A stretch of DNA of 64,000 nucleotides from positions 21,886,001 to 21,950,000 of the forward strand of contig OZ360252.1 in assembly GCA_977017645.1 (NCBI GenBank), given 5' to 3'. Origin of the DNA: Torpedo marmorata. Lineage: Eukaryota. Position numbers and translations under genes: made by a program. Below are positions 1 through 64,000 of the stretch, piece after piece (the stretch's first letter is position 1; each line of letters starts with the position of its first letter). The notes beneath the pieces were generated by a model, which saw only the letters and a program-made list of their open reading frames with translations, was not told the DNA's origin and made no database searches.

Positions 1-949
1 GTCTTTGGTGACATTCCGAATTACAGCTTTAAAATTCTGCTGTCATCCTCAGAGGACTTTGGCAGAAGTACCAGTCAGGAAAGGAATGAGATGCTAAGGA
101 GTATTTGTTGATGGCTTCATTGGTTGTGTGTGTTATACAGGCTGATTTCCTTTCTCCTTTCCCCGCTCTTTGCTAAACTGGGTTTGTGTTCATTAAGCAG
201 AGGATTGGTCATGCAAGGGTGTGAGAGACTTTGGTGAACTTTACCAAAGGTAACTATCAGCTGAGAAGCCCATTCACTATTGTCCATGGCCTTGTAAGAG
301 ACCACCGGCAAATTTGAGGAACAACCTTGTATTTCGTCTTGGCGCTCTCCAACTAGACAGCATCGACAATTTCCATTAACGTGCTGCCCTGCGTCTCTCT
401 CTTTCCTTGCCTCTCTTTCTCCTTTCCTCCAGATCCCCACCCCTTCCCTTCCTTCTCCTATCAGAGAGCTACCTTTGTTAGCCCTCTGTCTCCTCCCCAT
501 CACTTCTCAGCTTCTTTCTCTTCTTCCCTCCCACCTATGACCTCTTACCTGTTAGCCTGTGCTCCTCAATCCCCTCCCCCACCCCACCCCACTTTTTTTA
601 TTCGGGCGTCTACCTGTTTTTCCAGATTCCAGATGAAGGGCTTCGGCCCGAGACGTTGGTTATCCTTCACTTCCTATGGATGCTGCATGACCTTCTCCAG
701 CACGTTTGTGCTTTGCACTACATCAACTGCTTCTCAGACTGCTGTGGAGAACTGCTTGTGTATTAAAAGTTTAAAAAAAACAATGCTGTTTGACCTGCTG
801 AGTTTCTCCAGCATTATTTTTACTTCAAACAGAGTGTCTGCAGACTTGCGTGTTTTACTTCTTGCTTGTGTATTAAACTGGGATCCGAATGTTCGGAATA
901 CTTTTCCTAACCGGAGGCTGAGACTTTTCTTCCTTGGTTGGGACCTTTC

Positions 950-2295
950 TCCCTGGAGCATAGGAGACTGAGGACCTTGTATAGAGGTATACAAGATCAT
1001 GAGAGGCATAGATCAGGTAAATAGTCATAAATCTGTTTCCTCGGGTAGGGGAATCTAAAGCTTTAGGGCAGGGGTCTTCAAAGTGGTCGATATCGACCCC
1101 TGGGGGTCGATGGGACTATCCAAGGGGTCGATAAATGCCAGGGGGTCGATAAACGCCGGGTGGAGGGGGGTCGATTGAACTTTTGCGGTGGAAAGCAAGG
1201 GCGTGTCTACGGAAAATAGCGCCTAAGACAGGGGTGGCCAACCTCTCGCGAGAGCGAGCCTTGGTGGATGCCATGTTGCATTTGGCTTCGGCCTTTTAAT
1301 AAGTTGAGAGCGAACGGGAGGACGGACGGAGCGTAGAAGAAAGAGGTATGCGTTCTTTCTACTTTTGGTAGCGCCCCACCCCCGGCCAGCTCCGCCACCA
1401 TCACCCCCCCCCCACCCCCCCCCGCCCGAGGGATTCCATGCCTGGGGGTCCATGAGAGATCAAGGATTCCATGAAGGGGTCGATGGTCTTAAAAAGTTTT
1501 TGGGGCCCCTGCTTTAGGGCATAGATTTGAGGTGAGAGGGGAAAGATGTAAAAGGGACGAGAGGGGCAACATTTTCAGGGAGGGCGGTGGGTATATGGAA
1601 CAAGCTGCCGGAGGAAGTGGTAGAAGTCACTGTTCTATACGATCGATGTCGTCAAGCTGGAGAGGGTGCAGAGAGGATTTACGAGGATGTTGCCAGGACT
1701 CGGGGGCCTGAGCTACAGGGAGAGGTTGAACAAGCTGGGGCTTTATTCCTTGGAGCACAGGAGGATGAGGGGTGATCTCATAGAGGTGGACAACATCATG
1801 AGAGGAATAGATCGGGTGAACGCAGAGTCTTTTGCCCAGAGTAGGGGAATCGTTAACCGGGGACATAGGTTTAAGGTGGGGGTGAGAGATGTAACAGGAA
1901 CCTGAGGGGTAACATTTTTGCACAGAGGGCGGTGGGTGTGTGGAACGGGCTGCCGGAGGAGGTGGTTGAGGCAGGGACTATTGCAACGTTTAGGAAACAT
2001 TTGGATGGAAACATGGATAGGGTGGGTTTAGAGGGATATGGGCCAAACGCAGGCAGGTGGGACGAGTGTGCGTGGGACATTTTTGTTGGCATAGGCAAGT
2101 TGGGCCGAAGGTCCTGTTCCCTAGCTGTGTGACTCTCAAGAATCTAAGGTGGGGACGATTGTAATATTTAAGGAAACGTTTAGACAGGTACACGGAGAGG
2201 AAAGGTTTTGAGGGACATGTCCCAAATGCAGGCAAATGAGACGAGCTCAGGTAGACATTGGGCTGAAGGGCTGGTTTGCATGCTGTAAAATTCTA
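950..2295 (+). mobile_element. Cluster of 5'-truncated CR1 LINE 3' fragments
   Basis: ORF2 C-terminal peptides RGFTRMLPGL...RRMRGDLIEV, WNGLPEEVVEAGT; repeated gggccgaagg...ctgt 3' tails. Confidence 0.85.
1069..1511. mobile_element. Non-autonomous hAT-type DNA transposon inserted in CR1
   Basis: CAGGGG...CCCCTG termini; perfect 8-bp TSD ctttaggg (1061-1068, 1512-1519); ggggtcgat subterminal repeats. Confidence 0.9.
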
Positions 2296-2837
2296 TGACC
2301 ATTGTCTCTCTGCAAACCTCTCGTCCTATCTGGCTCTCTGTCCACAGATGCCCTCTTGCTGACAGTGCTGCCGCAAGAGGCCACTCAGTGGTCAAAGCCC
2401 ATGCTGGCTGCCAGCTGGATAATCTGTCAGCCCCAATCCCCCACCCCTCTGCTCCTTATCACCCTGGCACCCCCCGAATCAGATTCCCTCTCACTTCCCT
2501 TTGATTCTTTCGCTACTTACCAACATCAGGGAGGGTAGTTACTGGTAGACAGTTAATCTCATGGGTGGCACAGTTAGTGTAGCGGTTAGCGCAACACGAT
2601 CACATTCAGCATATTTTATTCTCCAGGAGTCGTAGAGATTTTTTTTGAATTTCTAAAACTCGCAAGATTACTTTCTCCTTGCAACCAAATTGAAGCTCAT
2701 CTTGTCTTCCATTCTTCAATTCTTCCCTTTTGAATAGTTATTCATCTATTTTGATCCCTTAATTCCATAACCTTGCCTCTTCTAATGGGAATTCAGATAT
2801 TAGTGAACGTTGGTGGAATGGACGAGTTTTTAAACAA

Positions 2838-3047
2838 TGGTGGCTCAGTTAGCGCAACACTATGACAGCACCAGTGACCCAGGTACGAATCCGACGAATG
2901 TTCTCCCCGTGTCTGCGTTGGCTTCCTCCGGGCGCTCCGGTTTCTCTCCCATCCTCCAAAATGTACGGGGTTGGTAGGTTAATGGGTGTATTTAGGTGGC
3001 GCGGGCCGGAAGGGCCTGTTACTGTGCTCTATGTCTAAATTTAAAAT
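2838..3047 (+). mobile_element. tRNA-derived V-SINE (HE1-like)
   Basis: degenerate A/B boxes, V-domain gttctccccgtgtctgcg...tccggttt, CR1-like tail gggccggaagggcctgtt...gtctaaattta. Confidence 0.8.
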
Positions 3048-3405
3048 TGACCAGCGCATCAGGAAGCTCATGGACAGCGGGAAAAAGTGCAGACAAACTC
3101 CGGGCAGACAGCACCAGAGCTCAGGGTCGAACGCTGACCGCTTGAGATTTCAATTTCCCCTGTCCATCCTCCTGTCCTCTACCTGCGTCCTCATTCTGAA
3201 TAACAAAAGTAATGAACCCGTTCAGCACATAAAATTCCATGTCTACAACATTCATTGCTCAAAAGAAAAGAGAAAATGAATTGACTTTAGCAAGGCCTTT
3301 GACAAGGTCCCGCACGGGAGGTTGGTCAGGGAGGGCGGTTGGTATTCAAGATGATGTATAAATTGGATCAGACGTTGGGTTTGTGGGAAAAGCTAGTGAT
3401 TGGTA

Positions 3406-4780: not shown

Positions 4781-6459
4781 GGCCTCTCCCTATCTCCCAG
4801 CATTGAGAGGGTGCTATTACCCACAGCTGTGTACCTTAACCATCTGTTGAAAGTTGGGGGGTTTCCTTGACCCATCTGATGTCCTGGTGGCTCCAAGTTG
4901 GATTCTGTTCCCTAAGGAAGCCTAAACAAGGCTATAACAGCGCCAGCGACCCAGGTTCGAATCCGCCGCTGTCTGTAAGGAGTTTGTACGTTCTCCCCGT
5001 GACCTGCGTGGGTTTCCTCTCGGTGCTCCGGTTTCGTCCCCACCTCCAAAATGCATGGGGTTTATAAGTTAATTGGGTGGCACGGGTTTCATGGGCTGGA
5101 AGGGCCTTTGTATGGTATCGTCAAAATTAAAAAAAAAAAAAAAATCTTGTATCCACAGTCCTTTAGAATCAGGGGCCGTTCAGTTTAGCTCAGTCAGCCA
5201 ATGTATTGCCTTTGATTAGTGTCCAGTACACATTGAAACCAATGCAATGGCAGAGTCAGGTTTCCTGCTGTTACTTTGAAAGGACAGAGACAATGCTGGA
5301 AAAGCACAATCGGACACTGACTGGATTGGTCTGTGGGAGCTGACAAACTGCCCTCGATCCAGCAGCTTCTGCACATTCTAGATTTCAGCACATGCTGTTT
5401 AAACTTTGTCTCTATTGTTCCCCATTCTCTCTCTCGTGAAAATTCCAGCCCCCGTTTATGCGAGTTCACAGAACTTCCCTCCTCATCATCAAACAGGTTA
5501 GGACTTTGTTCCCTGGAGCGTCGGGGAACGAGGGGAGATTTGATAGAGGGATACCAAATTATGAGAGGAATAGATAAGAGTAAATGCAACCAACTGAGAT
5601 TGGGTGAGACAAGAACTAGAGGACAGAGGTTAGGAGTGAAAGGGGAAAAGTTTAAAGGGAACCTCTTCATGCAGAGAGTGGTGGAAGTGTGGACAGGTAC
5701 ATGGATGGGAGGGATATGGTCCGGGTGCAGGTCAGTGGGTCGAGGCAGAATGTACTGTGCTGTAATGTTCTCTGGTTCTATCATCATCATGGATCCATCC
5801 CCCAGAATGTACAATATAGAACATTACAGCACAGTGGAGGCCCTTCGGCCCACAATGTTGTACCGACCTATGTAAACCTGCTCCACAACAATCTAAACCT
5901 TCCCTCCCTCACACCCATAACCCTCTATTTTTCTTACATCCATGCGCCTGTCTAAGAGTCTTTTGAATGACCCATTTGTACCAGCCTCCACCACCACCCC
6001 TGGCAAGGCATTCAAGGCACCCGCCACTCTCTGAGTAAATAAAAAAACTTACCTCTGACATCTCCCCTAAACTTTCCTCTCTGTGCCTTTATCTTTGCTA
6101 TATAAAGTACAGTGTTATGACCTGCTGAGTTTCTCCAGCATTGTTTCTTTACTTCAATCACAGTGTCTGTAGATTTTTGTGTTTTACTTCTTAAAACAGG
6201 TGTCCTCTGGAATTTAAATATCTCTTGGTTCAGCCAGCAATTTCTTTCGCCTCTCACTATCCCAATCTCCCTGTCTTTATTAACTCCCTTTACAAATGCA
6301 GAACATAAGGGAGGAAAGTTTAGGGAGACATCAGGGGTACGTTTTTTTTACACAGAGAGTTGTTGGTGCCTGGAATGCATTGCCAGGGGTGGTGGTGGAG
6401 GCTGGAACAATGGGGGCATTTAAGAGAGAGGCACAGGATGAAATTTCAATTCTCCATCC

Positions 6460-6925
6460 CATTCCCTTGCCGACATGGTCTCATGCACTGCCAGACTGAG
6501 ACCACCCGTAAACTGGAGGAACAACACCTCATCTTCCGACTGGGCACCCTCCAACCGGATGGCATTAATAACGACTTCTCTGGCTTTCGTTAAACACCAC
6601 CACCCCCCCCCCCCCAACCCTTGCTTCCCCCGTCGTCTCTCCATTCCCTGTCTCCTTTCGCACAGACATGATAAATTCCACCTCGTCCCTTATCATATCC
6701 AGTTAATACCTTTTGTTGGTCTGGATTCCTCCCCCATTGTTTGAATTCTGAGACTTTCTGATATCTCCTGCTTCTGCCTTTTCTGATTTTTCCTTGAAGA
6801 AGGGCTCAGGCCCAAAACATCGGCAATATATCTTTGTCTCCTGTAGATGCTGAATAGACCAGCTGAGTTCCTCCAGCATTTCGATGTTTTTACTACAATC
6901 ACAGCGTCTGCAGCCTTATTGTGTT
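6460..6925 (+). mobile_element. Penelope-like element 3' fragment (GIY-YIG C-terminus plus terminal region with hammerhead-like motif)
   Basis: HGLMHCQTETTRKLEEQHLIFRLGTLQPDGINNDFS homologous to the copy at 54871-56807; ttgaagaagggctcaggcccaaaac. Confidence 0.85.
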
Positions 6926-8059
6926 TCTCTCACATGGATGAAAGAAAAATAGAGGGTTATGAGGTAGGGAAGGTTTAGTATATTTTTTTGGTAGGTATAG
7001 ATGGGTTAGCACAACATCGTAGGCCGAAGGGCCTGTACTGTGCTGTAACGTTCTATGTAATTGCAAGGTTTGGGGATGGATGTTTGAAACAGGAGGTGCT
7101 GAATCTCTGGAGTTCTCTACCCTGGAGGGTGGTGGAGGTTAGAATTTTGGGGATATTTAAAGAGAAGGCCGTAACATTTTTTTGGAAGACTGAGAGCCTT
7201 TTGGAGCTGGCAGAGGAGGAGTTGAGACGAGGGCAGATCAGTCATGGCTGGATGGGAGGAGGGAGGTGTGCCAAGTGGCCGACACAAACTCGTATTTTCT
7301 TATTGATTACCATTTTGTATTGAAAGGACTGCATTTCTGCAGCACCTGTCACAACCTCAGGGCCTCTCTCTTTCCCTATGTCTCCCCAGACTCTTCCCTC
7401 TTCATTCAGAGAGCCTATTGCTTCTCAGCTGCTCTTCTACCCTCCCACCTGCATTCGTCCACATAACCTCTTAGCTATGCTCCCCCCCCCCCCGCCCTTT
7501 CCTCCCTCCTCTAGGTAGGTGGAGATCAGCTTATCATCAGATTAGCCATGATCTCATTGAATGGCAGAGCAGGCTCGACCGGCCGGATGGTCTACTCCTG
7601 CTCCTAGTTCTTATGTTCTCTCCTCCCCCTACCTTTATATTCAGGTGCCTGCCTGCTTTTTGCTCATTCCTTCATGAAGGGCTCCGGCCCAAAGCGATGG
7701 TTACCCTTTACTTCTTGTAGATACTGTGTGACCTGCTGAGTTTCACCAGCACTTTGGTGTATTGTGTAACCCTGGGGATTCCCAGCGCATCTATTTCCAG
7801 CACAGTGCAGTAGGATACCGGTGCTTTCAATACTAACGGTAATGGGCCTAATTCTTGCCTTTTTCCCCCAATGGCCAAGAACTCGAGGGCTGAACCTGGG
7901 TCCCACCTTGGAGGTCATGGGCTTGAAGTTGCCGCCTGCCTCTGTCCAGAGTGGTGGGTCCAACTGGTCACAGAGCAGCGATGGAATGGCAGGGGTTGAA
8001 GCAAGGAGAAGGGACCTCATTGGGATGAGTTTCTTCAACCTGCAATACATTCAGTTTTC

Positions 8060-12514: not shown

Positions 12515-12537
12515 TACTACGTTTGAGGCATTTAGAC

Positions 12538-12853: not shown

Positions 12854-13203
12854 ATTTAGACCAACACTTAAATGGACAAGGATATGGCTCTAATGAGGGC
12901 AAATGGGATTAGTGGAGATGAGCCTTAGGGCTTGTTTCAGTGCTGTACAACTCCATAATAATTCCATAACACTCTTACCCCAGCCCGTTCAGCCTCCACT
13001 AATGTCTGAAAGTGTCCAGCCCCGGAAACATCTCTGCAAACCCACTCTTGTGCCCTCAAGTTCAAGTTTATTATCATCCGATTGTACAACCACAACCCGA
13101 TGTAACAGCGTTCTCCAGTCTTCGGTGCAAATCATGCAGACACACACCAGACATAACACGTGCGGGGGAAAAAGGTTCCCTGTGCCTCTCATGAAATTTT
13201 ATA

Positions 13204-13357
13204 CTTCTATCAGTTCACACTTCTATCAGTTCACACTTCTATCAGTTCACCCTTCTATCAGTTCACCCTTCTATCAGTTCACCCTTCTATCAGTTCACCC
13301 TTCTATCAGTTCACCCTTCTATCAGTTCACCCTTCTATCAGTTCACCCTTCTATCAG
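13204..13357. repeat. 16-bp minisatellite (cttctatcagttcac[a/c]) x~10
   Basis: unit starts at 13204, 13220 ... 13348; embedded in an antisense CR1 fragment. Confidence 0.95.
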
Positions 13358-13791
13358 CTTCCCTCTGGGATAAGCAAGCCCAGCTGATCCGATCTCTCCC
13401 CCAACCTCATGAGGCACTGTTCTCGGAGGGCCACCCTGCTCTTGTATTCTCCGCCTGGGCTAATAGAGGCGGGTATCCCAATTTCCCTCCTTGCGTACTT
13501 GTCCCTCTATCTTCCAGGACCAGTAAAAGACCACTTGTAGATCCCTCTGCTCCTCTACGCTCATTAGTATCTCATCAATAATGATGCCCTGGTGACTGAC
13601 CTCCCCAAGTGTGTTCCCTCTCGCTTCTCCAGGCTGTCCTCCACTTGCTTCCTGCCTGCCCGACAAGCCCTCCTCCAGCCTCAACTCTCACCCACTCTCC
13701 TGTTGCTGGTGTCATCGGCCAGTATCTCATCAAGGCCTTGGACGGAAACTATGGAGAAAGCAGGGGTCAATGGTAACAAGGTCAAAGGCAT

Positions 13792-14023
13792 TAGCCTGAA
13801 TACGACTGGGATTGTCTGATCTCGGAAGCTAAGCAGGCACAGGACTGGTCAGTACTTGGAGGGGAGACTGCCTAGGAACACCAGGTGCTGTAGGTTTCTG
13901 TGAGGGGCGCTGGACAAAGTAGCGACCCTCTGTCTGCCTTACAGTAGACAAAAATTAAACAATTTCATGTATGTTACATTCTAAATGTAGTTTTACGTGA
14001 CAATAATGGAACCTTTACCTTTA
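13792..14023 (+). mobile_element. 5S rRNA-derived SINE (SINE3-like), copy 1
   Basis: gtctgatctcggaagctaagcagg...cagtacttggaggggagactgcctaggaacaccaggtgctgtaggttt matches 5S rRNA; followed by a ~125-bp non-5S tail ending gtgacaataatggaacctttaccttt. Confidence 0.88.
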
Positions 14024-14399: not shown

Positions 14400-14870
14400 A
14401 GAACCCTCACCACCCAGGCCATGCCCTCTTCTCACTGCTACCATCGGGAAGGAGGTACAGGAGCCTGAAGACGAACACCCAGCGGCACAAGGACAGCTTC
14501 CTCCCCTCTGCCATCAGATTTCTGAATGGACAACGAACCACAGACACTGCCTCATTTTTTCTTTTTGCATTACGTTTTTTTTTTTTCTCTTGTATTTACG
14601 CAATTGTATCTTTATATTTATTTCTGCACTTTTTTCTGCACCATACCTGCGGCCGTAAAACAACAAATTTCATGAGGGGAGTGAAACACGAAAGTCTGCA
14701 GACGCTGTGATTGTAGTAAAAACGCAGAAATGCTGGAGGAACTCAGCAGGTCTCGTAGCGTCCATAGGAGGTAAAGTTGTACATCTTTACCTCCTCTGGA
14801 CGCTGCGAGACCTGCTGAACAAATTTCATGACACATATTCATGACAATAAACCTGATTCTGATTCTACTT
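14400..14870 (+). mobile_element. Rex1/Babar LINE 3' fragment with a Penelope-end insertion (14676-14817)
   Basis: HHPGHAL..LLPSGRRYRSLK-type coding; tail aatttcatgac...gacaataaacctgattctgattct; insertion has 14-bp TSD aacaaatttcatga. Confidence 0.82.
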
Positions 14871-19695: not shown

Positions 19696-20482
19696 CTACG
19701 CATTTATGTGCCATAAATGCACACAATTGTTGGAGAAACTCAGCAGGTTCCACTGCCTCCAGAAGATGCAAAGATATATAACCAGCGTTTTGGGCCTGAG
19801 CCCTTCGTCAAGGGAAAGTGAAAAATGAAAATAAATGTTCTCAAAATTAAATATGCTGCACAACTTCACAAAAGCTTTTGGAACTTCTTGAGTGTCTTTG
19901 ATGGGAGCTGTTCAGAGATTTAAATAATGTTAAAAAGCAGCCAAAATAAAGACGTTGAAATAATTCGCCCATTACCCTGAGTGCCGTTTTCCAAAGGCTC
20001 GGAGACTACCCGAAGGAGTAGCTGCTCACATCGCAGGGCCTCCTGAGGCGAGGCGGATCTCACCGTCCTCACTCTCTGCCACCATGTTCGGAGGCCGGTC
20101 GAGTGCCGAGTGGGAGGTCCCGAGCGCCGGCTTCTGACCACCTGCTCCTCTCGCGCTTGGCCATTGAAATCCGGAAGGAGCTGAGCGCAGGAGGTTGCCC
20201 ATTGGTCAGCTCAGTTCCACCGCTGACTGTCGTGTGCTGAATCTGGAAGCGGAGCATATATCAGAACATCCACGTAAACATTGATAGAAATTAGTCTTTG
20301 TACATCCTTTAAAAAATATCGTCGGAAAAGTATGATAATAAGTTTATTGTCATATGCAGTGTGCATATACACCGAAATTCCTACAATTTGCAGCTGAACA
20401 GGTACTTTGCTTTTTTGAAAACAGTTCCATACAACTAAAAAATACAACTACATACTAAATAATTGAATTAAAAAGACAAATT

Positions 20483-34105: not shown

Positions 34106-34206
34106 AAAAAGGTTATTTTTGAAATTAACTTTCTCTCTACAGTGGCAGTCTGGTTTCCTGAGTGCTTACAACTTTTTTTATTTTATCCCTAATACTAAAT
34201 GATACT

Positions 34207-38653: not shown

Positions 38654-39272
38654 TATCCAACAGCTGGTCCGTCCCCAGTTACCTTGAGGAGATGGAGAGT
38701 CCTCGGTCAATTCATGTGCTCGTCCCCACACCCCCCCAACCCCAACCCTGCACTCTTGAGAACTCCAAACCCAGCAGATTGGCCTCACGATTCAGGACGC
38801 CTTGTGGCACAGCAGGTAGTGCTGCTGCCTAGCAAAGCTGGCGACCTGGGGTGAGGTCCTGGCCTCCGGAGCTGCCTGTGGAGTTTGCACCTTCTCCTTG
38901 CAACGACTGGGTAGGTTCTCCTCTCTCCCTCCTGCCACCCCCCCACCCCCCCCCCACAGCCCAGCGCTCCACTACCTCCCCCCACATCACAAGGTCCATG
39001 CAGACTGGCAGGTTAATGGGTCACTGAAGACCACCCTTCGTGCAGGTGGGAGGGAGGAGAATTTGGGTCCGCAAGAGAGCAGGTTGCGGGGAAATGGCTG
39101 GGATTGCACTGAAAACCAACCTCAGCTCGATGGGCTGAATGGCCTGAGTTATACAAAGCAGAAGCTGAGGTTGGAGGGGAAGGTTGCTCCTCTTGTCTTG
39201 GTTTACTGTTGAAGTCCACCAGCAGCCTGAGATGATGGAGTCACAAGAGGATCTAAGAGGCTAGTCCTTCAA

Positions 39273-39507
39273 TAGCCTGAATATGACTGGGATTGTCTGA
39301 TATTGGAAGCTAAGCAGGCACAGGACTGGTCAGTACTTGGAGGGGAGACCGCCTAGGAACACCAGGTGCTGTAGGTTTCTGTGAGGGGCGCTGGACAAAG
39401 TAGCGACTCTGTCTGCCTTACGGTAGACAAAAATTAAAGAATTTCATGTTTGTTACATTCTAAATGTAGTATTACGTGACAATAATGGAACCTATACCTT
39501 TACCTTT
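39273..39507 (+). mobile_element. 5S rRNA-derived SINE (SINE3-like), copy 2
   Basis: colinear with 13792-14023; same start tagcctgaata and same accttt-repeat end. Confidence 0.88.
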
Positions 39508-40095: not shown

Positions 40096-40640
40096 TAAGT
40101 CTGCGGCGCACCTGTGCTACACCTGTGGCACCAGCTACCTGCTCTGAGTGTTGGTGACTTCAGAGTGTGCTTAACGTCAACAGTTGCATTACATTGGACT
40201 TGTGGGGGAAAAAAGTTTCATTTTTAATCAGTGATGTTTAATTTAATTTAATTTTTATAAAACTTAGACATACAGCACGGTAACAGGCCCGTGAGCCTGT
40301 GCCGCACAATTACACCCAATTGACCTACAGCCCCCAGTACGTTTTGAACGGACAATTCCCAGACAATTTTGATAACTGGGCAATTCCCAATCAAGTGTGT
40401 GACCACTTTGCCATGAGAGAGATATTGTTTTTATGGACAGTATTTGTGTAGCACTACCCTATTCTCGCCATATTTTCTCTGAGAAATTACGCTACTTTTA
40501 TTCGGAGAATTTGCTGCAGTTTCCAGTCCGTCCACGGAGTGAAACACAACAGTCTGCAGGCACTGCGATTGTAGTAAAACACAGAAATGCTGGAGGAACT
40601 CAGCCAGTCTTGCAGCGTCCATAGGAGGTAAAGATTAATT

Positions 40641-43600
40641 ATGGAGAAGGATAGGTCTGGGCCTCGAGTTGTGATTCTAAATTGGAGAAAGGCCAATTTT
40701 GAGGAAGTGACAAAGGATCTGGAATGCGTGGATTGGGATAAGTTGTTTTCGGGCAAGGATGTGCGAGGTAGGTGGAGGACCTTCAAAGGTGAAATTTTGA
40801 GAGTACAGAGTTTGTATGTTACTGTCAGGATTAAAGGCAAGGTTAGCAGGCATAGGGAAACTTGGTTTTCGAGGGATATTGGGGAGCTGGTTTGGAAGAA
40901 GAGAGAGGTGTACAGCAGGTATAGGCAACGTGGAGCAAATGAGGTACTTGAGGAGTACAGTACGTTTCCGATTATCCGAAACGCTTGGGACCGGACGTGT
41001 ATCGGTTAACTGCATTTTCCGGATATCTGATCTGCAGCCCAGTTTAAGTAGCAGAATAGTTGTATCGGCCGTCGCCGATCCCGACACCTCCCCACCACCG
41101 TCGCTGATCCTGCCCAGGCGCCCGAGGTCCCCGCTCGGATCCCCGACACCTCCCCACCGCCGTCGCAGAACCTGTCCAGGCGCCCGAGGTCCCCGCTCGG
41201 ATCCCCGACACCTCCCCACCGCCGTCGCGGAACCTGCCCGGGAAACTCCAGCCCTGGCCCCGGCCGCCGACTCACCGGAGCTTCCGACGCCACGGCCGCC
41301 GACCCAACGGAGCTCCCGATGACACGGCCGCCAACTCCAACCCTGGTCCCGGCTGCCGACCCAACGGAACTTCCGATGCCACGGCCGCAAACTCAAACCC
41401 GGAACCTGACCACCTACTCACCGGAGCTCCCGACGCTTTGTCCGCTGACTCCAGCGTTGAACCAGTCTGCCTACCTCCAGAAGATCCTGACGCTGATGCT
41501 GCGGACTCTCACCTGAGCCCCGGTCTCCCTCGGGCCGGAGCTTCCCGGGACCCCGAGGTCCCCGCTCCGATCCCAGCCCAATAGCATCAGCATAACGCTT
41601 GTACAGTATCAGCTGTTAAAACAACAACAAAGAACAAGGGAAGGTTTTTCAAGCATGAAATAAAGTTTAATTCTTACCTTGAGTACACGAGAGCTCCGTT
41701 GGATTCAAAATGGCGCTAACAGCACGTCAGAGTCCCACTTGAGCACGGCAGGTTAAAAAAATCCAACTTTTTTTCAACTTGTGACATCATGTCGCCGCCG
41801 AAAATTTTCGCGGATAACTTGGTAATTTCGGTAAAGTGGCTTTCGGATAATCGGAAACATACTGTATAAGAAATGCAAGAAAAACTCAAGAAAGAAATCA
41901 GGAAGGCAAAAAAAAGACATGAGGTTGCTTTGGCAGACAATGTGAAGGAAAATCTTAAGGGTTTCTACAGGTATATTAAGAGCAAAAGGATAGTAAGGGT
42001 CAAAAGTGGTCCCCTTGAAGATCAGAGTGGTCGGCCTTGTATGGAGCCAAAAGAGATGGGGGAGATCTTAAATGTTTTTTTTTCATCAATATTCACTCAG
42101 GAAACAGGAACAGAGTCGTGGGAAGTAAGGAAAACAAGCAGTGAGGTCATGGAACCTCTACAGATTAAAGAGGAGGAGGTTCTTGCTGTCTTAAAGCAAA
42201 AAAGGGTGGATAAATCCCCAGGGCCTGACAAGATATTCCCTCGGACCTTGAGGGAGGCTAATGTAGAAATTGCATGGGCTCTTGCAGAAATATTTAAAAT
42301 GTCCTAAGCCACGGATGTGGTGCTGGAGGATTGGAGGGTAGCTCACGTTGTTCCGTTGTTTAAAAAAGGCTCCAAAAGTAACCCTGGAAATTATAGGCTG
42401 GTAGCCTGATGTCAGTAGTAGGTAAATTTTTGGAAGGTGTTCTAAGAGATCGGATATACAATTATTTGGATAGCCAGAAACAAATTAAGGATAGTCAACA
42501 TGGCTTTGTGTGTGGTAGGTCGTGTTTAACCAATCTTAGAGTTTTAGGAGGAGGTTACCAGGAAAGTTGATGAAGGAAAGGCTGTGGATGTTATCTACAT
42601 TGACTTTAGTAAGGCCTTTGACAAGGTCCCACATGGGAGGTTTGTCAGGAAGGTTCAGACGCTAGGTATCCATGGTGAAGTAGTGAACTGGATTCGACAA
42701 TGGCTGGACGGGAGAAGCCAGAGAGTAGTGGTGGATGATTGCTTCTCAGACTGGAGGCCTGTAACTAGTGGTGTGCCTCAGGGATCGGTGCTGGGACCAT
42801 TGTTGTTTGTCATCTATATCAAGGATCTGGATGATAATGTGGTAAATTGGATCAGCAAGTTTGCAGATGACACTAAGCTTGGAGACGTTGTGGACAGATA
42901 AGAAGGTTTTCAAAGCTTGCAGAGGGATCTGGACCAGCTGGAAAAATGGGCTGAAAAATGGCAGATGGAATTTAATGCAGACAAGTGTGAGGTGTTGCAT
43001 TTTGGAAGGACAAACCAAGGTAGGACATACACGGTAAATGGTAGGGCACTGAGGAGTACGGTAGAACAGAGGGATCTGGGAATACAGATACATAATTCCC
43101 TGAAAGTGGCGTCACAGGTAGATAGAGTTGTAAAGAGAGCTTTTGGCATATTGGCTTCATAAATCAAAATATTGAGTACAGGAGCTGGGGTGTTATGGTA
43201 AAGTTGTATAAGACATTGGTGAGGCCAAATTTGGAGTATTGTGAGCAGTTCTGGTCGCCAAACTACAGGAAGGATATCAGTAAGATAGAGAGAGTGCAGA
43301 GAAGATTTACTGGGATGTTGCCCGGACTTCAGGAGTTAAAGGGAAAGGTTAAACAGGTTAGGACTTTATTCCCTGGAGCGTAGAAGAATGAGGGGAGATT
43401 TGATAGAGGTATTTAAAATTATGAGAGGGATAGACAGAGCAAATGTAGATAGGCTTTTTCCACTGAGGGTAGGTGAGATACAAACCAGAGGACATGGGTT
43501 AAGGGTGAAAGGGGAAAAGTTTAGGGGGAACATGAGGGGGAACTTCTTTACACAGAGTGGTAGGAGAGTGGAATGAGCTGCCAGCTGAGGTGGTGAATGC

Positions 43601-43772
43601 GGGCTCAATTTTAACATTTAAGAAGAATTTGGACAGGTACATTGATGGAAGAGGTATGGAGTGCTATGGACTGGGTGCAGGTCAGTGGGACTACGCAAAA
43701 ATAAAAATGGTTCGGCACAGAGTAGAAGGGCCGAAGGGGCCTGTTTCTGTGCTCTAATGTTCTATGGTTCTA
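40641..43772 (+). mobile_element. CR1 LINE, long 5'-truncated ORF2 relic interrupted by a MITE
   Basis: [46 protein letters not shown] motifs; tail tgttctatggttcta. Confidence 0.95.
40958..41864. mobile_element. 907-bp CpG-rich Tc1/mariner-type non-autonomous element with internal tandem repeats
   Basis: ta|cagtacgtttccgattatccgaaa ... tttcggataatcggaaacatactg|ta; CR1 frame EVLEEY resumes after it. Confidence 0.92.
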
Positions 43773-44659
43773 ACTGACGTTTCGGGCTGAGCCCTTCCTA
43801 CCTTGCAGAAGATGCTCAGGCCTGAAACGTCAGGCCCAAAACGTTGGTTATACAGCTTTACCTCCTATGGATGCTGCATGACTGTCTGAGTTCCTACAGC
43901 AATTCTGTGTTTTTACTCCAGTTCATCCATTTTTTAAGCGGATTGTTAGATTATAAGACATCAAAGCAGAATTAGCCCATGAACTCTGCCCCGCCATTCC
44001 ATCAGGGCTGATTTACTATCCTTTTCAACCCCATTCTCCTGCTTCTCCCCATGATTCCCTCTCTAGTCCAGAACCTATCTACCTGTGTTTTAAATATCCC
44101 CAATGACCTGGCCTACACAGCCGTCCATGGCAACAAATTCCAAAGATGCACCGCCCTCTGGGTAAAGAAATTCCTCCTCATCTCTGTTCTAAAGGGACGC
44201 TTTTGTATTCTGTCGCTGTGCCCTCTGGACCCAGACTCCCCCACCACAGGAAACATCCTCTCCACATCCACTCTATCCAGGCTTTTCAGTATTTCTTTTG
44301 CTTGTTTGAAGGCATCCTTAACACTAGATTCCAGCATCTTGCCAACCACCGACATCAGGCTAACCGGCCTATAATATATCCTGTCTTTTGCCTCCCTCTC
44401 TTGAAGAGTGGAGCGACGTTTGCAATTTTCCACTGTTCCGGGACCGTTGCCGGAGGTGGTGGTGGAGGCTGGTACAATAGGGACATTCAAAAGACTCTGA
44501 GACAGGTAGATGAAGCTAAGGAAAATAGAGGGTTATGGGTGTGAGGTAGGGAAGGATTAGATCATTGTGGAGTAGGTTTACGTAGGTCAGTGAAACATTG
44601 TGCGCTGGAGGGACCATACAGTGCTGTAGTTTTTAAATTTAAAATTTAAAATTAAAAAA

Positions 44660-51636: not shown

Positions 51637-53280
51637 CAGAAGGTCTGAAAGCACTTCGCTTCTTCCTGGACCAAAGACCCGACCAGTCACCCTCTACCAC
51701 CACCCTCCTCTGCCTGGCAGAACTTGTCCTCACTCTAAATAGCTTCTCCTTTAACACATCCCACTTCCTCCAAATCAAAGGAGTAGCCATGGGTACCCGC
51801 ATGGGTCCCAGCTACGCCTGCCTGTTTGTGGGCTTTGTGGAGCAATCCATGCTGCAAGCCAACACAGGCAAGACCCCTCATCTCTTCCTCCGGTATATCG
51901 ACGACTACATCGGGGCTGCCTCATGCACCCGCGATGAGCTTGTCAACTTCATCCACTTCGCATCCAACTTCCACCACGATCTCAAACTCACCTGGTCCAT
52001 CTCCGATAACACTCTCCCCTTCCTGGATCTCTGTCTCCATCTAGGGAGACAAGCTTTCCACCGACATATACTACAAAACCTCCAACTCCCACAACTACCT
52101 GCACTACACTTCCTCACACCCTGTCCCCTGCAAAGATTCCAATCCCTTCTCTCAATTTCTCCGTCTCCCCCGCATCTGTTCCCAAGATGAGGTCTTCCAG
52201 TCCAGTTCTACTGAAATGTCTGCCTTCTCCCACAAACGTGGCTTCCCCTCCACCACCATCAACTCAGCCCTCACCCGCATCTCCTCCATTTCCCGCTCAT
52301 CTGCCCTGGCCCCCTCTGCCCCCAGATGCAACAAACATAGAATCCCCCTCATCCTCACCTACCACCCCACCAGCCTTCGCATTCAGCACATTATCCGCCG
52401 GAATTTCCGGCACTTACTACAGGATCCCACCACCAGACACATTTTTCCTTCTCCTCCCCTCTCGGCCTTCCATAGGGACTGCTCCCTCCGTGATTCCCTC
52501 ATGCACTCATCCCTCCCCACCCATCGCACCCCCAGCACCTTCCCCTGTGCCCGCAGGACGTGCAACACTTGCGCCCACACCTCCTCCCTCACCACGGTCT
52601 GGGACCCCAAACAGGCCTTCCAAGTGAAGCTACACATCACTTGTACATCTAGAGAACTTATTTACTGCATCTGGTGCTCCCTTTGTGGCTTTCTCTACAT
52701 CGGAGAGACCGGTCGTAGATTGGGAGACTGCTTCGCTGAGCACCTCCTCTCCGTCCGCAACAACAGCGACCTCCCAGTAGCCAGCCATTTCAATTCCGAG
52801 TCACACTCCCACACTCACATGTATGTCCATGGCCTTATGTACTATCCCACCTAGACCAACCGCAAATTGGAGGAACAACACCTTATTTTCCGTCTGGGCA
52901 CTCTCCAGCCAGATGGCATTAACATTGACTTTTCTGCATTCCACTAAACCTGCTCACCTTTTCCTTCCCCTCACCTGTCCTTCCTGTTTTTTTCCACCCA
53001 CCCAGCCATCCCTCCTCCCCCTCTTTGCTGCTATCCCCTCCCTCCTTTCTCCACCTATCATCTCCTGCCTTTCCCACCCCCCTTTCCCCCCCCACCCCCC
53101 CAACTGTTGTTCGGACGCCTGCCGGCAATTTCTCATACTTTGATGAAGGGCTCAAGCCTGAAACGTCGGTTATGTATTTCTACCTTTGCTACATAAAAGA
53201 CACTGTTTGACCTGCTGAGCTTCTCCAGCATTTGTGTTTTTTACTTCAACCACGGTGTCTACAGATTTTCGTGATTTACT
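51637..53280 (+). mobile_element. Penelope-like element (Neptune-like), 5'-truncated and frameshifted; RT + GIY-YIG
   Basis: GVAMGTRMGPSYA, RYIDD; CARRTCNTC linker; LIYCIWCSLCG..YIGET; hammerhead-like motif at 53134-53174. Confidence 0.92.
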
Positions 53281-54450: not shown

Positions 54451-54870
54451 TCCCACTGCCAAGATGGAATATAAGGGGTTGTTCCTCCAGTTTACGGGTG
54501 GCCGCGGCTTGGCAGTGCATGAGTCCGTGGACAGAAATGTCAGTATGGTAATGGTGGCAATTATAGTAAAACCTCCCGGTGTCCGACACCTACAGTGATT
54601 GGTAGATGCCGGTTTGCAAATTTTCCGGTTGCTTAAGACTCACCCTTGCAATGCTAATAAACCAGCATTAAGAATATACAGTTTAAAAGATAAAAGACAG
54701 TGCAAAATGTAAAGTAATTTGAAAAAAATGTATTGTAATCCTTAATTATGTAAAGTTCACTTTAGAACCATAGAACATTACAACACAGAAACAGGCTCCT
54801 TCGGCCCTTCTAGTCTGTGCCGAACCATTTTTTTGCCTAGTCCCACTGACCTGCACCCAGTCCATAGCCC

Positions 54871-56807
54871 ACCACGGCCACCAACCTCATTCTCCCCCAC
54901 CCCCGCACAGCCCGTTTCTACCTTCTACCCAAGATACACAAACCCAACCATCCGGGCAGACCCATTGTTTCTGCCTGCTCCTGCCCCACCGAACTAGTTT
55001 CATCTTACCTTGACTCCATCTTTTCTCCCCTGGTCCAATCCCTCCCCACCTACATCCGCGACACCTCACATGCCCTCCATCTCCTCGATGACTTCAGATT
55101 CCCTGAACCGGACCGCATCATCTTCACCATGGATGTCCAATCCCTTTATACCTCTATCCCCCACACAGAAGGTCTGAAAGCACTTCGCTTCTTCCTGGAC
55201 CAAAGACCCGACCAGTCACCCTCTACCACCACCCTCCTCCGCCTGGCAGAACTTGTCCTCACTCTCAATAACTTCTCCTTCAACTCATCCCACTTCCTCC
55301 AAATCAAAGGAGTAGCCATGGGTACCCGCATGGGTCCCAGCTACGCCTGCCTGTTTGTGGGCTTTGTGGAGCAATCCATGCTGCAAGCCTACACAGGCAA
55401 GACCCCTCATCTCTTCCTCCGGTATATCGACGACTACATCGGGGCTGCCTCATGCACCCACAATGAGCTCGTCAACTTCATCCACTTCGCATCCAACTTC
55501 CACCCCGATCTCAAACTCACCTGGTCCATCTCCGATAACACTCTCCCCTTCCTGGATCTCTCTGTCTCCATCTCGGGAGACAAGCTTTCCACCGACATTT
55601 ACTACAAACCCTCCAACTCCCACAACTATCTGGACTACACTTCCTCACACCCTGTCCCCTGCAAGGACTCCATCCCCTTCTCTCAATTTCTCCGCCTCCG
55701 CCGCATCTGTTCCCAAGATGAGGTGTTCCACTCCAGATCTTCTGAAATGTCTGCCTTTTTCCACAAACGTGGCTTCCCCTCCACCACCATCAACTCAGCC
55801 CTCACCCGCATCTCCTCCATTTCCCGCTCATCTGCCCTGGCCCCCTCTGCCCCCAGACGCAACAAACATAGAATACCCCTCATCCTCAGCTACCACCCCA
55901 CCAGCCTCCGCATCCAACACATTATCCGCCGGAATTTCCGGCACGCTGCAGGATCCCACCACCAGACACATTTTTCCTTCTCCTCCCCTCTCGGCCTTCC
56001 GTAGGGACCGCTCCCTCCGCGATTCACTCGTGCACTTGTCCCTCCCCACCCATCGCACCCCCGGAACCTTCCCCTGTGCCCGCAGGAGGTGCAACACCTG
56101 CGCCAACACCTCCCCCCTCACCACGGTCCATGGCCCCAAACAGGCCTTCCAAGTGAAACTACACTTCACTTGTACATCCAGAGTACTTATTTACTGCATC
56201 CGGTGCTCCCTTTGTGGCTTTCTATACATTGGAGAGACCGGTCGTAGATTGGGAGACCGCTTTGCTGAGCACCTCCTCTCCGTCCGCAACAACAGCGACC
56301 TCCCAGTAGCCAACCATTTCAATTCTGGGTCACACTCCCACACTCACATATCTGTTCATGGCCTCATGTACTATCCCACCCAGACTACCCGCAAATTGGA
56401 GGAACAACATCTCATATTCCGTCTGGGCACTCTCCAGCCAGATGGCATTAACATTGACTTTTCTGCTTTCCACTAAACCTGCTTGTTGTTCCCTTCCCCT
56501 CCCCCCTCACCTGTCCTTCCTGTTTTTTTCCACCCACCCAGCCATCCCTCCTCCCCCTCTTTGCTGCTGTCCCCTCCCTCCTTTCTCCACCTATCATCTC
56601 CTGCCTTTGCCACCCCCCTTCCCCCCTCACTCCTTTGTTCGGACGCCTGCCGGCATTTTCTCATACTTTGATGAAGGGCTCAAGCCCGAAATGTCGGTTA
56701 TGTATTTCTACCTTTGCTACATAAAAGACACTGTTTGACCTGCTGAGTTCTCCAGCATTTGTGTTTTTTACTTCAACCACGGTGTCTACAGATTTTCGTG
56801 TTTACTT
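54871..56807 (+). mobile_element. Penelope-like element (Neptune-like), near-intact RT + GIY-YIG with a frameshift near 55945
   Basis: MDVQSLYTSIP, GVAMG, RYIDD, FLD; CARRRCNTC linker; LIYCIRC..YIGET..R..EH; 8-bp TSD catagccc (54863-54870, 56808-56815). Confidence 0.95.
56662..56702 (+). ncRNA. Minimal type-I hammerhead-ribozyme-like motif (C3U variant) in the Penelope terminal region
   Basis: catact-TTGATGA-a-gggc(tcaa)gccc-GAAA-tg-TC-ggttatg; Penelope-like elements are known to carry minimal hammerheads; activity untested. Confidence 0.6.
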
Positions 56808-58693
56808 CATAGCCCTCCATACCTCTCCCATCCATGTACCTGTCCAAATTCTTCTTAAATGTTAAAATTGAGCCTGCATTCACCATGTCAGCTGGCAGCT
56901 CGTTCCACACTCCCACCACTCTGTGTGAAGAGGTTCCCCAAAAATTGTTCCCCTTTCACTCTTAACCCATGTCCTCTGGTTTGTATCTCACCTACCCTCA
57001 GTGGAAAAAGCCTATCTACATTTACTCTGTCTATCCCCCTCATAATTTTAAATACCTCTATCAAATCTCCCCTCATTCTTCTACGCTCCAGGGAATAAAG
57101 TCCTAACCTGTTTAACCTTTCCCGGTAACTCAGTTCCTGAAGTCCGGGCAACATCCTAGTAAATCTTCTTCGCACTCTTTCTATCTTGTTGATATCTTTC
57201 CTGTAGTTAGGTGACCAAAACTGCACACAATACTCCAAATTTGGCCTCACCAATGTCTTATACAACTTTACCATAACGTCCCAACTCCTGTACTCAATAC
57301 TTTGATTTATAAAGGCCTTCATATCTGCCTGTGATGCTACTTTCAGGGAATTATGTATCTGTATTCCCAGATCCCTCTGTTCTACCACACTCCTCAGTCC
57401 CCTACCATTCACCGTGTACGTCCTTTCTTGGTTTGTCCTTCCAAAATGCAACACCTCACACTTGTCTGCATTAAATTCCATCTGCCATTTTTCAGCCCAT
57501 TTTTCCAGCTGGTCTTGATCCCTCTGCAAGCTCTGAAAACCTTCCTCGCAGTCCACAACACCTCCAATCTTAGTGTCATCTGCAAACTTGCTGATCCAAT
57601 TTACCACATTATCATCCAGATCATTGATATAGATTACAAACAACAATGGTATCTTTAATCAGATAATTCCCATAACTTACCAAATTTAAATTTAAATTCG
57701 AACCCCGGTCACTGGCGCTGTAACAGCGTTGCGCTAACCGCTACGCTAACCGTGCCGCCATCATAACTAACTCCCCCAAGTTTACAGATAAAGCCTTACT
57801 AATACACTTAATCATATTCTGTACTAATATGATAAAGACTCTTTCTCGGCAGAGATAGGGAGACACTTTGGGACAGTCACCCCAGCGGCGAGCGGCACCG
57901 GCCGGCTCTTCATCCTGGGCGCCGCCATTTTATTCAAATGCAACTTTATTGAAACTTTATTCAAACGGCTGCTGCACGACCGGGGAGCTCCGCTGGCTGA
58001 ATGTTTGCTCCTGTCTTTAAGGGGTTGTGTGCTGCTTCGGAGAACATTTACTTTACAATTTAAAACTTTTATTTAAAATTTTATTTATTCTTATTTATTT
58101 TAATTTTTAAAATTTACTTATTTCCTCTTTTTTTTTTAACCAGTTGCTTCGGGTTGTCATTTGCTTGAATTCTGGACAATGGGGATTTTACTGTATTTGG
58201 ATGAGACATCAATATTGACCTCTGATTTCTGTTAAATCCTCTGTCCTGATCTCTCTTTCCTTTCCCCTCTCTCTCCTTTCCTCCATTTCCCTCACCCCTT
58301 CCCTTCATTCTCTGATCAGAGAGCTACCCTACTTAGCTCTCTGCCCTCTCCCCAACATTTTTCAGCTTCTTTCTCTTCTACCCTCCCACCTGTATCTACT
58401 ATGACCTCTGACATATTAGCCTGTGCTCCCCCCCCCCCCCACCCCTTCCTCCCTCCTCTCCTCCCCCCACGTTTATATTCAGGAGTCTGCCTGTTTTCCT
58501 ACATATCCAACTCAGGCCCGAAGCGTTGGTTACCATTTTACTTCGTACGGATGCTGCGTGACCTGCTGAGTTTCTCCAACACTTTTGTGTACTACACTCG
58601 ACCCCAGCATCTGCAGACTTTCTTGTTTAAAGTCGGACAGCATCTGTGGGTAGAAATGGTCCATCAACGTAGAACCCTACATCAAATTGAGAG

Positions 58694-59543
58694 GTAAACA
58701 CGAAAATCTGTAGACACCGTAGTTAGAAGTAAAAAACACAAAAGCTGGAGAACTCAGCAGGTCAAACAGTGTCTTTTATGTAGCAAAGGTAGAAATACAT
58801 AACCGACGTTTCGGTCTTGAGCCCTTCATCAAAGTATGAGAAAATGCCGGCAGGCGTCCAAACAAAGGAGTGAGGGGGGAAGGGGGGTGGCAAAGGCAGG
58901 AGATGATAGGTGGAGAAAGGAGGGAGGGGACAGCAGCAAAGAGGGGGAGGAGGGATGGCTGGGTGGGTGGAAAAAAACAGGAAGGACAGGTGAGGGGGGA
59001 GGGGAAGGGAACAACAAGCAGGTTTAGTGGAAAGCAGAAAAGTCAATGTTAATGCCATCTGGCTGGAGAGTGCCGAGACGGAAAATGAGATGTTGTTCCT
59101 CCAATTTGCGGGTAGTCTGGGTGGGATAGTACATGAGGCCATGTACAGACATGTGAGTGTGGGAGTGTGACCCAGAATTGAAATGGTTGGCTACTGGGAG
59201 GTCGCTGTTGTTGCGGACGAAGAGGAGGTGCTCAGCAAAGCGGTCTCCCAATCTACGACCGGTCTCTCCAATGTATAGAAAGCCACAAAGGGAGCACCGG
59301 ATGCAGTAAATAAGTCCTCTAGATGTACAAGTGAAGTGTAGTTTCACTTGGAAGGCCTGTTTGGGGCCCTGGACCTTGGTGAGGGGGTAGGTGCGGGCGC
59401 AGGTGTTGCACCTCCTGCGGGCACAGGGCAAGGTGCCAGGGGTGCGATGGGTGGGGAGGGACGAGTGCACGAGTGAATCGCGGAGGGAGCGGTCCCTACG
59501 GAAGGCCGAGAGGGGAGGAGAAGGAAAAATGTGTCTGGTGGTG
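58694..59543 (-). mobile_element. Penelope-like element 3' fragment (GIY-YIG plus terminal region), inverted
   Basis: ORF 59024-59470 is nearly identical to the GIY-YIG end of 54871-56807. Confidence 0.93.
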
Positions 59544-59784: not shown

Positions 59785-60510
59785 AGTCCGAATTTATTGT
59801 CATGAACGTGTCACAAAATTCATTGTTTGGCGGCAGCATTACAGGTGCAAACATTGCTATAAATTACATTAAAAAAAATAATTAGCGCGGCACGGTTAGC
59901 GCAACGCCTTTACTGCGCCAGCGATCGGGACCAGGGTTCGAATCCCGTGCTGTCTGTAAAGAGTTTGCACGTTCTCCCCGTGTCTGAGTGGGTTTTCCCC
60001 GGGGGCTCGGGTTTCCTCCCACTGTTTGAAATGTGTAGGTTAATGGGGTGTAAATTGGGCGGCACGGCCTCATGGGCCGGAATGACCTGTTACCCTGCTG
60101 TATGTCTAAATTTTTTTTTAAAAAGAGAAAAAGTGAGGTAGTGTCTGTGGTTCATTGTCCATTCAGAAATCTGATGGCGGAGGGGAAGAAGCTGTTTTTG
60201 TACTGTTGGGTGTTTGTCTTCAGGCTCCTGTACTTTGATGAAGGGCTCAAGCCTGAAACGTTGGTTATGTATCTTTGTGTTGTGTTGTGTTTTTACTTCA
60301 ATCATTGCATTTGCAGATTTTCCTGTTTTACTCTTGTACCTCCTTCCTGGTGGTATCAGTGTGAAGAGGGCGTGGCCTGCGTGGTGGGGGTCCTTGATGA
60401 TAGAGGCTGTTTTCTTGAGACACCGCCTCTTGTAGATGTCCTCGATGGGGTGAAGACTGGTGCCCGTGATGGCGCTGGCCGAGTTCACAACTCTCTGTAG
60501 CCTTTTCCTG
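59785..60510 (-). mobile_element. Rex1/Babar 3' fragment carrying a V-SINE (about 59885-60120) and a Penelope-end insertion (60234-60330)
   Basis: [13 protein letters not shown]...KDPHHAGHALF; insertion bounded by ctcctgtac/ctcttgtac. Confidence 0.82.
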
Positions 60511-61049: not shown

Positions 61050-61220
61050 TTGTGCACACACACACCCACCCGTACACCCCACACACACCCACACCCTGTA
61101 CACCCCACACACACCCCACGCGCACTCCCACGCGCACTCCCACGCGCACTCCCACGCGCACTCCCACGCGCACACCCACGCGCACACGTACACAGTACAC
61201 CCAACACACAAACGACACAC
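61050..61220. repeat. (CA)-rich microsatellite with a 12-bp repeat cccacgcgcact
   Basis: directly visible. Confidence 0.9.
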
Positions 61221-62635: not shown

Positions 62636-62831
62636 TATCTGGCCGCAGGGACTGTGTGTCGAGCCTCTGAAAACAAATGCGACCTCCCAGAGTACTGCAA
62701 CGGGACGAGCCACAACTGCCAGGTGGACGTGTTCGTGCAGAACGGGCATCCCTGCAACCACAACAACTCCTATTGCTATAACGGGGCCTGTCAGAGCTAC
62801 GACATTCAGTGCAAAGCCCTGTTTGGGCAGG
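62636..62831 (+). CDS. ADAM9: ADAM9-like disintegrin-loop / Cys-rich exon (YLAAGTVCRASENKCDLPEYCNG...QCKALFGQ)
   Basis: ctctccacag acceptor, gtaagt donor; 196 bp, phase 0 to 1; CDLPEYCNG and CYNG motifs. Confidence 0.95.
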
Positions 62832-63018
62832 GTAAGTATCGCACCCCTCGTCGCTGTTTTAACTTTAGCCTGAAGTGCAACAAGAGTGGTGCGGTTAGTG
62901 CCACGCTATTATAGCGCCAGCTACCCGGGTTGGAATACGCCACCGTCTGTAAGAAGCACAATGTACAAACATGCTGGAGAAACTCAGCAGGTCACGTAGA
63001 AATCCACAGGAAGTAAAG

Positions 63019-63372
63019 CAGTGGTTTTCAAACTTTTTCTTTCCACTCACTATCTTAAGTAATCCCAATGCCATAAGTGCTCTGTGATTAGTAAGGGATT
63101 ACTTAAGGCGGTATGTGACTGGGGAAAAAAAGGTTGAGAACCACTGCTCTCGACCCAATTGTTACTGAAATATTTTGCTTGAGAAAAATTGTCATTGGCC
63201 CATTTCCTTTGGAGTTATGAAACCGTGCACATAACGAGTCAATTAGGTACGATTAAAACAGTGGTTTTCAAACTTTTTCTTTCCACTCACATACCACCTT
63301 AGGTAATCCCTTACTAATCACAGAGCACTTAAGGTGGTATGTGAGTGGAAAGAAACAGTTTGAAAACCACTG
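63019..63372. mobile_element. hAT composite palindromic MITE, copy 3, inserted in a Penelope-end fragment
   Basis: cagtggttttcaaact TIRs; perfect 8-bp TSD aagtaaag. Confidence 0.92.
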
Positions 63373-64000
63373 AAGTAAAGAGTCACCGATATTTCAGGCT
63401 TGGGCCCTTCAAGGTACAGGACCTGTTTATTTTTTCTTATTTCTGACAAAGGGATAACATTACCTTCCCATGGATGCTGTGTGACCTTTCGGAGTTTCTC
63501 CAGCACGTTTGTATATTGCGCTCATCTTCAGCATCTGTAAACTTTCCTGTTTAACCCCACTGTCTGTAAGGAGATTGTACGTTTCCCCCGTGACCTGCGG
63601 ACCTTGAAGAAGGGCTCAGGCCGGCAAACGTCGGTAATATGTCTTTACCTCCTATGGACGCTGCGAGACCGGATGAGTTCCTCCAGCATTTCTGTGTTTT
63701 TACTGCAATCACAGCGTCTGCAGACTTTCGTGTTTCACTCGTACACGGGTTTTCCCTGGGTGCTTCAGTTTCCTCCCACCCTCCAAAAACGTTTGGGTTA
63801 ATTGGGTGTCATGGGGTGGGACAGGTTTCATGAGCCAGCAGGGCCTTCTACCATGCTGTATCGTTGGCGTTAAAATTAAGATTATTTCAACTGGCAAAGG
63901 AAATTATATTTAGCTCCATGATCGTTAGCTTTTTTTCATGTACTAGTTTGGAGATAATTCTTTTACCTCCTCACTAATCATTAAGATGCTGACAAGATCA

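Follow-up and report, generated by a model that had tools for sequence, protein, structure and literature searches.

Background

Minimal hammerhead ribozymes (min-HHRs) of metazoan Penelope-like elements (PLEs) were described by Cervera and De la Peña in 2014, with low activity in dimers (PMC4209133). Here, we analysed 64,000 nucleotides (nt) of Torpedo marmorata (GenBank assembly GCA_977017645.1, contig OZ360252.1, positions 21,886,001 to 21,950,000 of the forward strand; hereafter, the window), which lie inside an ADAM9-like gene and carry a recurrent hammerhead-like motif. This motif is a minimal type I hammerhead; it forms part of the end repeat (pLTR) of a Neptune-type PLE that is very abundant. 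As in the published min-HHRs, it is of type I without a loop III, presents the palindromic 15.2-16.2, the extra base between positions 9 and 10.1 and the G10.1-C11.1 pair, and is located in the pLTR, mostly as single dispersed copies. Its stem II is nearly the same as that of the Acropora Neptune motif (Fig. S3 of PMC4209133). We saw no cartilaginous fish in the table or the alignment of that paper. Moreover, the form with U at core position 3 and G at position 8 (U3.G8) is the majority here, with about 93,000 exact copies, and it can be dated as younger than the C3 subfamilies found in this genome.

Regarding other described systems, the Anolis Poseidon element PAc (Frangieh et al. 2024, PMC11167929) is alike in its tandem pLTR, in two reverse transcriptase (RT) start sites defining a 30-40-nt tail, and in the extension of both DNA strands. 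No RNA ends were found at the cut of PAc, and in Torpedo the insertion ends in assembled DNA show no clear excess there. The Anolis motif was cleaved only with the help of the element's protein, and insertion in vitro did not require this cleavage. PAc differs in being a Poseidon-clade element with a C3-G8 core and shown protein-assisted cleavage, and its hammerhead overlaps the start codon, whereas the Torpedo open reading frame (ORF) starts about 150 nt past the cut. Neptune endonuclease-positive (EN+) PLEs (Craig et al. 2021, PMC8557442) also present RT followed by GIY-YIG with a Cys-rich linker, and form partial tandems and inverted 5'-truncated copies with an optional tail. Finally, non-LTR retrozymes (Li et al. 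2026, bioRxiv 10.64898/2026.07.22.740005), described as non-autonomous PLE derivatives and present in one chondrichthyan, are likewise short hammerhead units derived from pLTRs; they are tandem units with a full hammerhead each, whereas the window contains only single or head-to-head pieces. Our literature search, with most subscription journals outside its coverage, retrieved no paper dedicated to cartilaginous-fish PLE hammerheads or to the cleavage rate of a U3.G8 mutant.

A minimal hammerhead in the pLTR of a Neptune-type element

A first, sequence-only reading of the window had listed eleven motif sites and related them to the minimal type I hammerheads of PLEs, with their tiny palindromic stem III. 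At 11/11 of these sites the motif is present, intact or decayed, and both the fold features, among them a palindromic ACGU stem III, and the pLTR setting agree with that proposal. Allowing up to 3 mismatches, a scan of the window gave 8 motif matches, compared with none in 29 of 30 first-order Markov resamples and one in the other. The Rfam model search of the window matched no hammerhead family at E up to 10. U3 and every other core position are kept in four window copies (53140, 56668, 60235 and, on the minus strand, 58832). The remaining six scored copies lost 1-4 core positions, with 43803 and 63604 scored out of register owing to indels and 63395 (minus strand) left out of the scoring; position 3 is C in the copy at 630. 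Hereafter, signed positions count from the predicted cut, 0 being window position 56695.

Three window copies, all 5'-truncated, preserve parts of the RT and/or the endonuclease along with a Cys-rich linker, which is the Neptune layout. As the earlier reading had noticed, the motif lies near the 3' end of these three copies –the element ends 110-111 nt past the predicted cut– and each has the possible stem I, CATACT/GGTTATG. Pfam detected the RT domain of the element and, on relatives, GIY-YIG; there was also a whole-length match to P0121. The CX2-5CXXC linker cysteines are invariant in alignment A1, and it is from this linker motif alone that the element would be assigned to the Neptune clade.

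On the coding strand, the hammerhead lies about 190 nt past the ORF; where copies are arranged in tandem, it directly precedes the next ORF. The ORF begins at about +152, as seen in 30 loci that carry the 5' part of the body. Since 10 of these 30 loci (two of them look like duplicates) have the whole hammerhead region joined head-to-tail upstream, the motif sits in the pLTR. Among 87 3' ends, 59 lie at +108-111 and 15 at +74-78, which matches the two internal RT start sites plus tail of PAc (PMC11167929). Partial tandems, inverted truncated copies and a 30-40-nt tail (34 nt here), which are traits of the Neptune clade, are also present. The family was found in 4/4 sets of sequencing-run contigs from four studies, and position 3 is not among the 40 differences listed between the family and those contigs; U3 in related species is only hinted at. 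Within the N-terminal part of the ORF we observed a variable array of 57-nt repeats (locus L311, with an open frame across the 700 codons read), a remnant of which remains at 41252-41452 of the window.

At the level of the fold, the UGANGA, GAAA and UH core in type I order is the majority base in 9/9 subfamilies, G12 being tied in subfamily E owing to CpG decay. The sequence-only reading had suggested covariation of stems I and II as a check, and the stems do covary among Neptune relatives. In a set of 23 sequences, made up of one genome copy for each of 8 subfamilies plus 15 metagenome motifs (two duplicates having been dropped), 96.5% of 230 cells were paired and 7/10 pairs presented two-sided changes. 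The filter demanded stems II and III and left stem I free; in stem I, 94% of 69 cells were paired with two-sided changes at 3/3 pairs, against 29-38% in slid controls. The stable monomer stem III of a canonical active hammerhead is lacking: ACGU has no loop, and monomers are predicted to fold otherwise. The predicted inactive fold reaches -12.4 kcal/mol vs. -8.3 for the hammerhead-like fold in the monomer, and -32.2 vs. -14.9 in the dimer. In young subfamilies, the stretch just 5' of stem I (window 56650-56660) is predicted to pair with 56688-56697, which holds GAAA and the cut site; this pairing would block the ribozyme in read-through RNA and not in RNA starting at -32.

Core position 3 changed from C to U

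The sequence-only reading had pointed to a lineage with U at core position 3, and U3 is indeed fixed in the dominant lineage: 92,698 of the 94,693 exact cores in the genome carry U3 and 1,995 carry C3, with 0 in the reversed control. Thus, the Watson-Crick 3-8 pair of a canonical active hammerhead is missing from the great majority of exact cores. In 864 kb chosen without regard to the motif, position 3 was U in 75/90 copies, C in 9 and another base in 6. The pairing at 3-8 is a U.G wobble in young subfamilies and C-G in old ones, and this change likely weakens self-cutting, judging from the core sequence.

An age series was built with 253 copies grouped by their 3' side (38 unassigned), in which 30 loci pre-picked for C3 inflate the C counts. 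The subfamilies dominated by C3 were G (0.26), H (0.14) and F (0.09), and those with U3 were D (0.11), C (0.09), E (0.06), B (0.04) and A (0.02). Subfamily H was picked by the 3' side alone, and 22 of its 25 core-bearing copies (of 30) have C3; since this older subfamily has C3, U3 is the derived state. Group F contains the C3 form together with a U3 form that is one base longer, which suggests that a one-base insertion created U3, pushing the old C3 into stem I.

Neither of the two traits that the earlier reading took as proper to this lineage is new. The extra A after A9 is a consensus feature in PMC4209133 and is also present in 17/17 intact metagenome motifs. These came from 79 metagenome relatives (66 with at least 200 nt downstream) and are all C3. 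As for U3.G8, Fig. S3 of PMC4209133 includes it in one PLE-linked family, Saccoglossus family 1, apart from U3-A8 families in Schistosoma. Published work already covers the motif class as well as the extra A and a U3.G8 core; what is distinctive here is a derived and dominant U3.G8 core together with a pile-up of 5' ends just before it.

5' ends pile up before the core and not at the cut

We counted 5' ends only where all three upstream bases differ from the element. There were 722 ends at -32 and 1,094 at -31, compared with 130 at -12, 91 at +8 and 618 over the six positions from -46 to -41 (about 103 each). This represents a 6- to 10-fold pile-up 31-32 bases before the predicted cut; about 40 of the 100 matches listed for -31 represent a palindromic junction that counts once on each strand, and the excess is still around sixfold without them. 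The pile-up likely marks a transcription start. Bases -34 to -28 fit YYANWYY, the initiator consensus, in all six U3 subfamilies, although this is a short motif of low information.

The insertion ends present no clear footprint of cleavage: 118 of 84,380 copies start at the cut (about 177 when corrected for a stricter filter), with controls at 91-130. Many of the cut-site matches listed resemble one-base insertions, judged by eye, and near-full-length loci starting at -1 were too few to count (1/30).

A probably weakened hammerhead

Altogether, we consider it probable that the motif is the minimal hammerhead of a PLE pLTR whose dispersed copies are likely inert by-products of copying. The fold would still be selected in the source elements, and any cutting by the U3 hammerhead would be weak and would depend on dimers or on the protein of the element. 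Uncut RNA would be the template for reverse transcription, with internal starts at +77 or +111.

Selection of the fold is supported by the six U3 subfamily consensuses, which are invariant at 14/15 core positions –the exception being a CpG-decay tie– vs. 12/33 downstream. Several points weigh against the favoured explanation. The core conservation is partly circular, since the pattern used to gather the copies was that of the core itself (4 mismatches being tolerated), and the subfamilies share ancestry. The pile-up at -31/-32 could arise from TAC microhomology or fold-back, and RT pausing may be another source; 14 of the 30 loci starting at -31 are inverted junctions. The C3 subfamily H likewise lacks a cut-site footprint (3/1,047), so that the missing footprint cannot separate U3 from C3. 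Finally, U3 hammerheads may have lost their activity altogether instead of being weak, because in the full pairwise scan of one hammerhead in PMC9901934 the 3-8 pair was rescued only by the C-G swap and all other single changes at this pair gave low activity.

This last point leads to the strongest alternative: that the U3.G8 hammerhead no longer cuts and its sequence is kept as an overlapping start site of the element or as a binding site for the element's protein. The harm caused by losing the Watson-Crick 3-8 pair (PMC9901934) speaks for it, as do Anolis PLE hammerhead mutants, whose insertion in vitro was unaffected (PMC11167929). The lack of a surplus of copies starting at the cut and the greater predicted stability of inactive folds, in monomer and dimer, are also in its favour. 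The 5' strand of stem I, moreover, is the segment that fits the initiator consensus in 6/6 U3 subfamilies, but such a 7-mer is low-information. Furthermore, the U3 subfamilies vary precisely at positions that are free in the ribozyme (N7, N17 and loop II) while retaining stem I pairing. We regard a hammerhead that has lost all cutting as unlikely, and a weakened one as the better account.

Short copies are probably incomplete copies of the parent element

The sequence-only reading had reported three short pieces with target-site duplications (TSDs) and suggested that the lineage seeds ribozyme-bearing mini-elements. Two of the TSDs are exact (15 nt at 753-767/863-877 and 14 nt at 14662-14675/14818-14831), and the repeat around 60234-60330 is of 9 nt with one mismatch. 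However, the pieces at 768-862 and 14676-14817 consist only of sequence downstream of the ribozyme, so that 2/3 of them lack the core. Short core copies flanked by TSDs are common beyond these pieces, and that part of the suggestion stands; a self-propagating family does not, as they have no variants of their own.

Among the 30 loci starting at -31, apart from the inverted junctions, 16 are direct copies, and 8/16 of these have a TSD of at least 7 nt compared with 3/240 in the control. Their 3' ends lie near +77 in 14 of the 30 loci and near +111 in another 14, with 2 elsewhere. In the favoured explanation, an RT that reaches the 5' end of the RNA, whose likely start site is about 32 nt before the cut, would leave stubs of 108-143 nt with the core, flanked by TSDs or head-to-head.

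A self-propagating, ribozyme-bearing short interspersed element (SINE) or retrozyme family mobilised by the PLE would also account for frequent TSDs. It would fit the young-family copies in unselected or flanking DNA, 38/59 of which start at most 58 nt before the cut or later, and one 9-copy array of a 95-nt unit that holds the whole motif. Nevertheless, short and long copies are equally diverged (1.4 and 1.3%), no private variant appeared when 30 short copies were compared with 20 long ones, and the ends vary. In addition, most of the TSD-flanked pieces in the window are coreless, and the tandem units with a complete hammerhead each that define retrozymes are absent from the window. Such a family is thus very unlikely, and the short copies are likely, from these sequence comparisons, incomplete copies of the parent PLE.

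Elsewhere in the genome, we observed other arrangements derived from the same region. The array mentioned above (L420:175-1025, G000:C2 near 310,247,200) comprises nine tandem 95-nt units, 99% alike, each with a whole U3 motif in which C11.1 has decayed; it is retrozyme-like, and dimers could form there. A satellite at L419 (G000:C1, about 705,800-729,000) is built of 27-nt units from the bases around and just past the predicted cut, with at least 170 copies in 5 kb. The pairs L366/L367, L373/L374 and L377/L378 are head-to-head stubs with both arms starting near -31 and with ends near +112 and +76.

The host gene

The ADAM9-like gene reaches about 71 kb upstream of the window and 29 kb past its end; all motif copies are thus intronic. 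The exon tested was 85-86% identical to ADAM9-like proteins of two batoids. Most copies had been read as sense to ADAM9. This holds for the listed sites and not for the whole gene, where a profile search placed 30 end pieces in sense and 35 in antisense orientation (17 and 18, respectively, for core-bearing ones); the sense excess within the window is chance. That intronic sense copies cleave ADAM9 pre-mRNA and alter its expression is highly improbable: three sense copies that are complete in the rest of the core (53140, 56668 and 60235) do share one intron, where stem III pairing is possible in principle, but they lie 3.5 kb apart with one CpG decay each, an 818-nt, 98% complementary partner 2 kb downstream would bury the 56668 copy in duplex, and the gene-wide counts present no sense bias. 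The intronic copies likely do not cut the pre-mRNA to any extent that matters; from their sequence, the dispersed copies are likely inert by-products of element copying and no control switch for ADAM9. No effect on ADAM9 is indicated.

Features of the window

Table 1. Host gene, Penelope-like element copies and hammerhead-bearing or end-derived pieces in the window
Feature	Position	Strand	Remarks
ADAM9-like host gene	1..64000	+	Entire window inside gene; 11 coding exons mapped between 14899 and 62860
5'-truncated Neptune-type PLE	54868..56806	+	RT, Cys linker, frameshifted GIY-YIG region, C-rich 3' untranslated region, hammerhead, end at +111
5'-truncated PLE copy	51637..53279	+	93% to young family
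5'-truncated PLE copy, endonuclease part and end	58693..59543	-	98% complementary over 818 nt to 55957-56774
Minimal hammerhead, youngest subfamily	56662..56702	+	U3 at 56668; predicted cut after 56695; C15.2 decayed to U
Minimal hammerhead	53134..53174	+	U3 at 53140; predicted cut after 53167; C11.1 decayed to U
Minimal hammerhead	58798..58838	-	U3 at 58832; single stem II mismatch
Short copy	60231..60330	+	Starts about 31 nt before cut; intact core, U3 at 60235; internal deletion downstream
Old-subfamily end region	621..748	+	C at position 3; core decayed
End region, subfamily E	6788..6921	+	U3; G12 lost
End region	7661..7779	+	U3; four core positions lost
End region	19713..19819	-	U3; two core positions lost
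Head-to-head pair	43771..43920	.	Short minus piece (43771-43799) and decayed plus copy with internal duplication
Short decayed core piece	63372..63420	-	
End region	63600..63738	+	Begins about 30 nt before cut; U3; 1-nt insertion in stem II/GAAA
End piece without core, downstream of ribozyme	768..862	+	15-nt TSD at 753-767 and 863-877
Inverted end pieces without core, downstream of ribozyme	14676..14817	-	14-nt TSD

Apart from these, more end pieces of the same PLE families, without the full core, were located at 6090-6187, 40539-40635, 58511-58631, 62958-63019 and 63463-63555. The window also contains 5S rRNA-like sequences at 13781-13896 and 39268-39377 that are probably SINE heads, tandem arrays of 43-nt units (34124-34656) and 16-nt units (13172-13389) and, at 21707-26781 on the minus strand, a near-complete L1/Tx1-like long interspersed element with ORF1, endonuclease and RT pieces, judged by their translations.

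Significance

Why PLEs retain hammerheads is stated as an open question in both PMC8557442 and PMC11167929. We tentatively suggest, as a possibility with the odds still against it, that a one-base insertion weakened or abolished the catalytic 3-8 pair in this lineage, which then went through its largest burst with the fold kept and its RNA starting inside stem I. If so, the fold would be a start-site or protein-binding element, or a deliberately slow switch for cap removal, and, having C3 as well as U3 subfamilies, a single genome would offer a natural test series for PLE hammerhead function. The genome of T. marmorata holds an age series from C3-G8 to U3.G8 within one lineage, in which the presumably weakened form is the most successful; therefore, a few constructs could test the need for cleavage.

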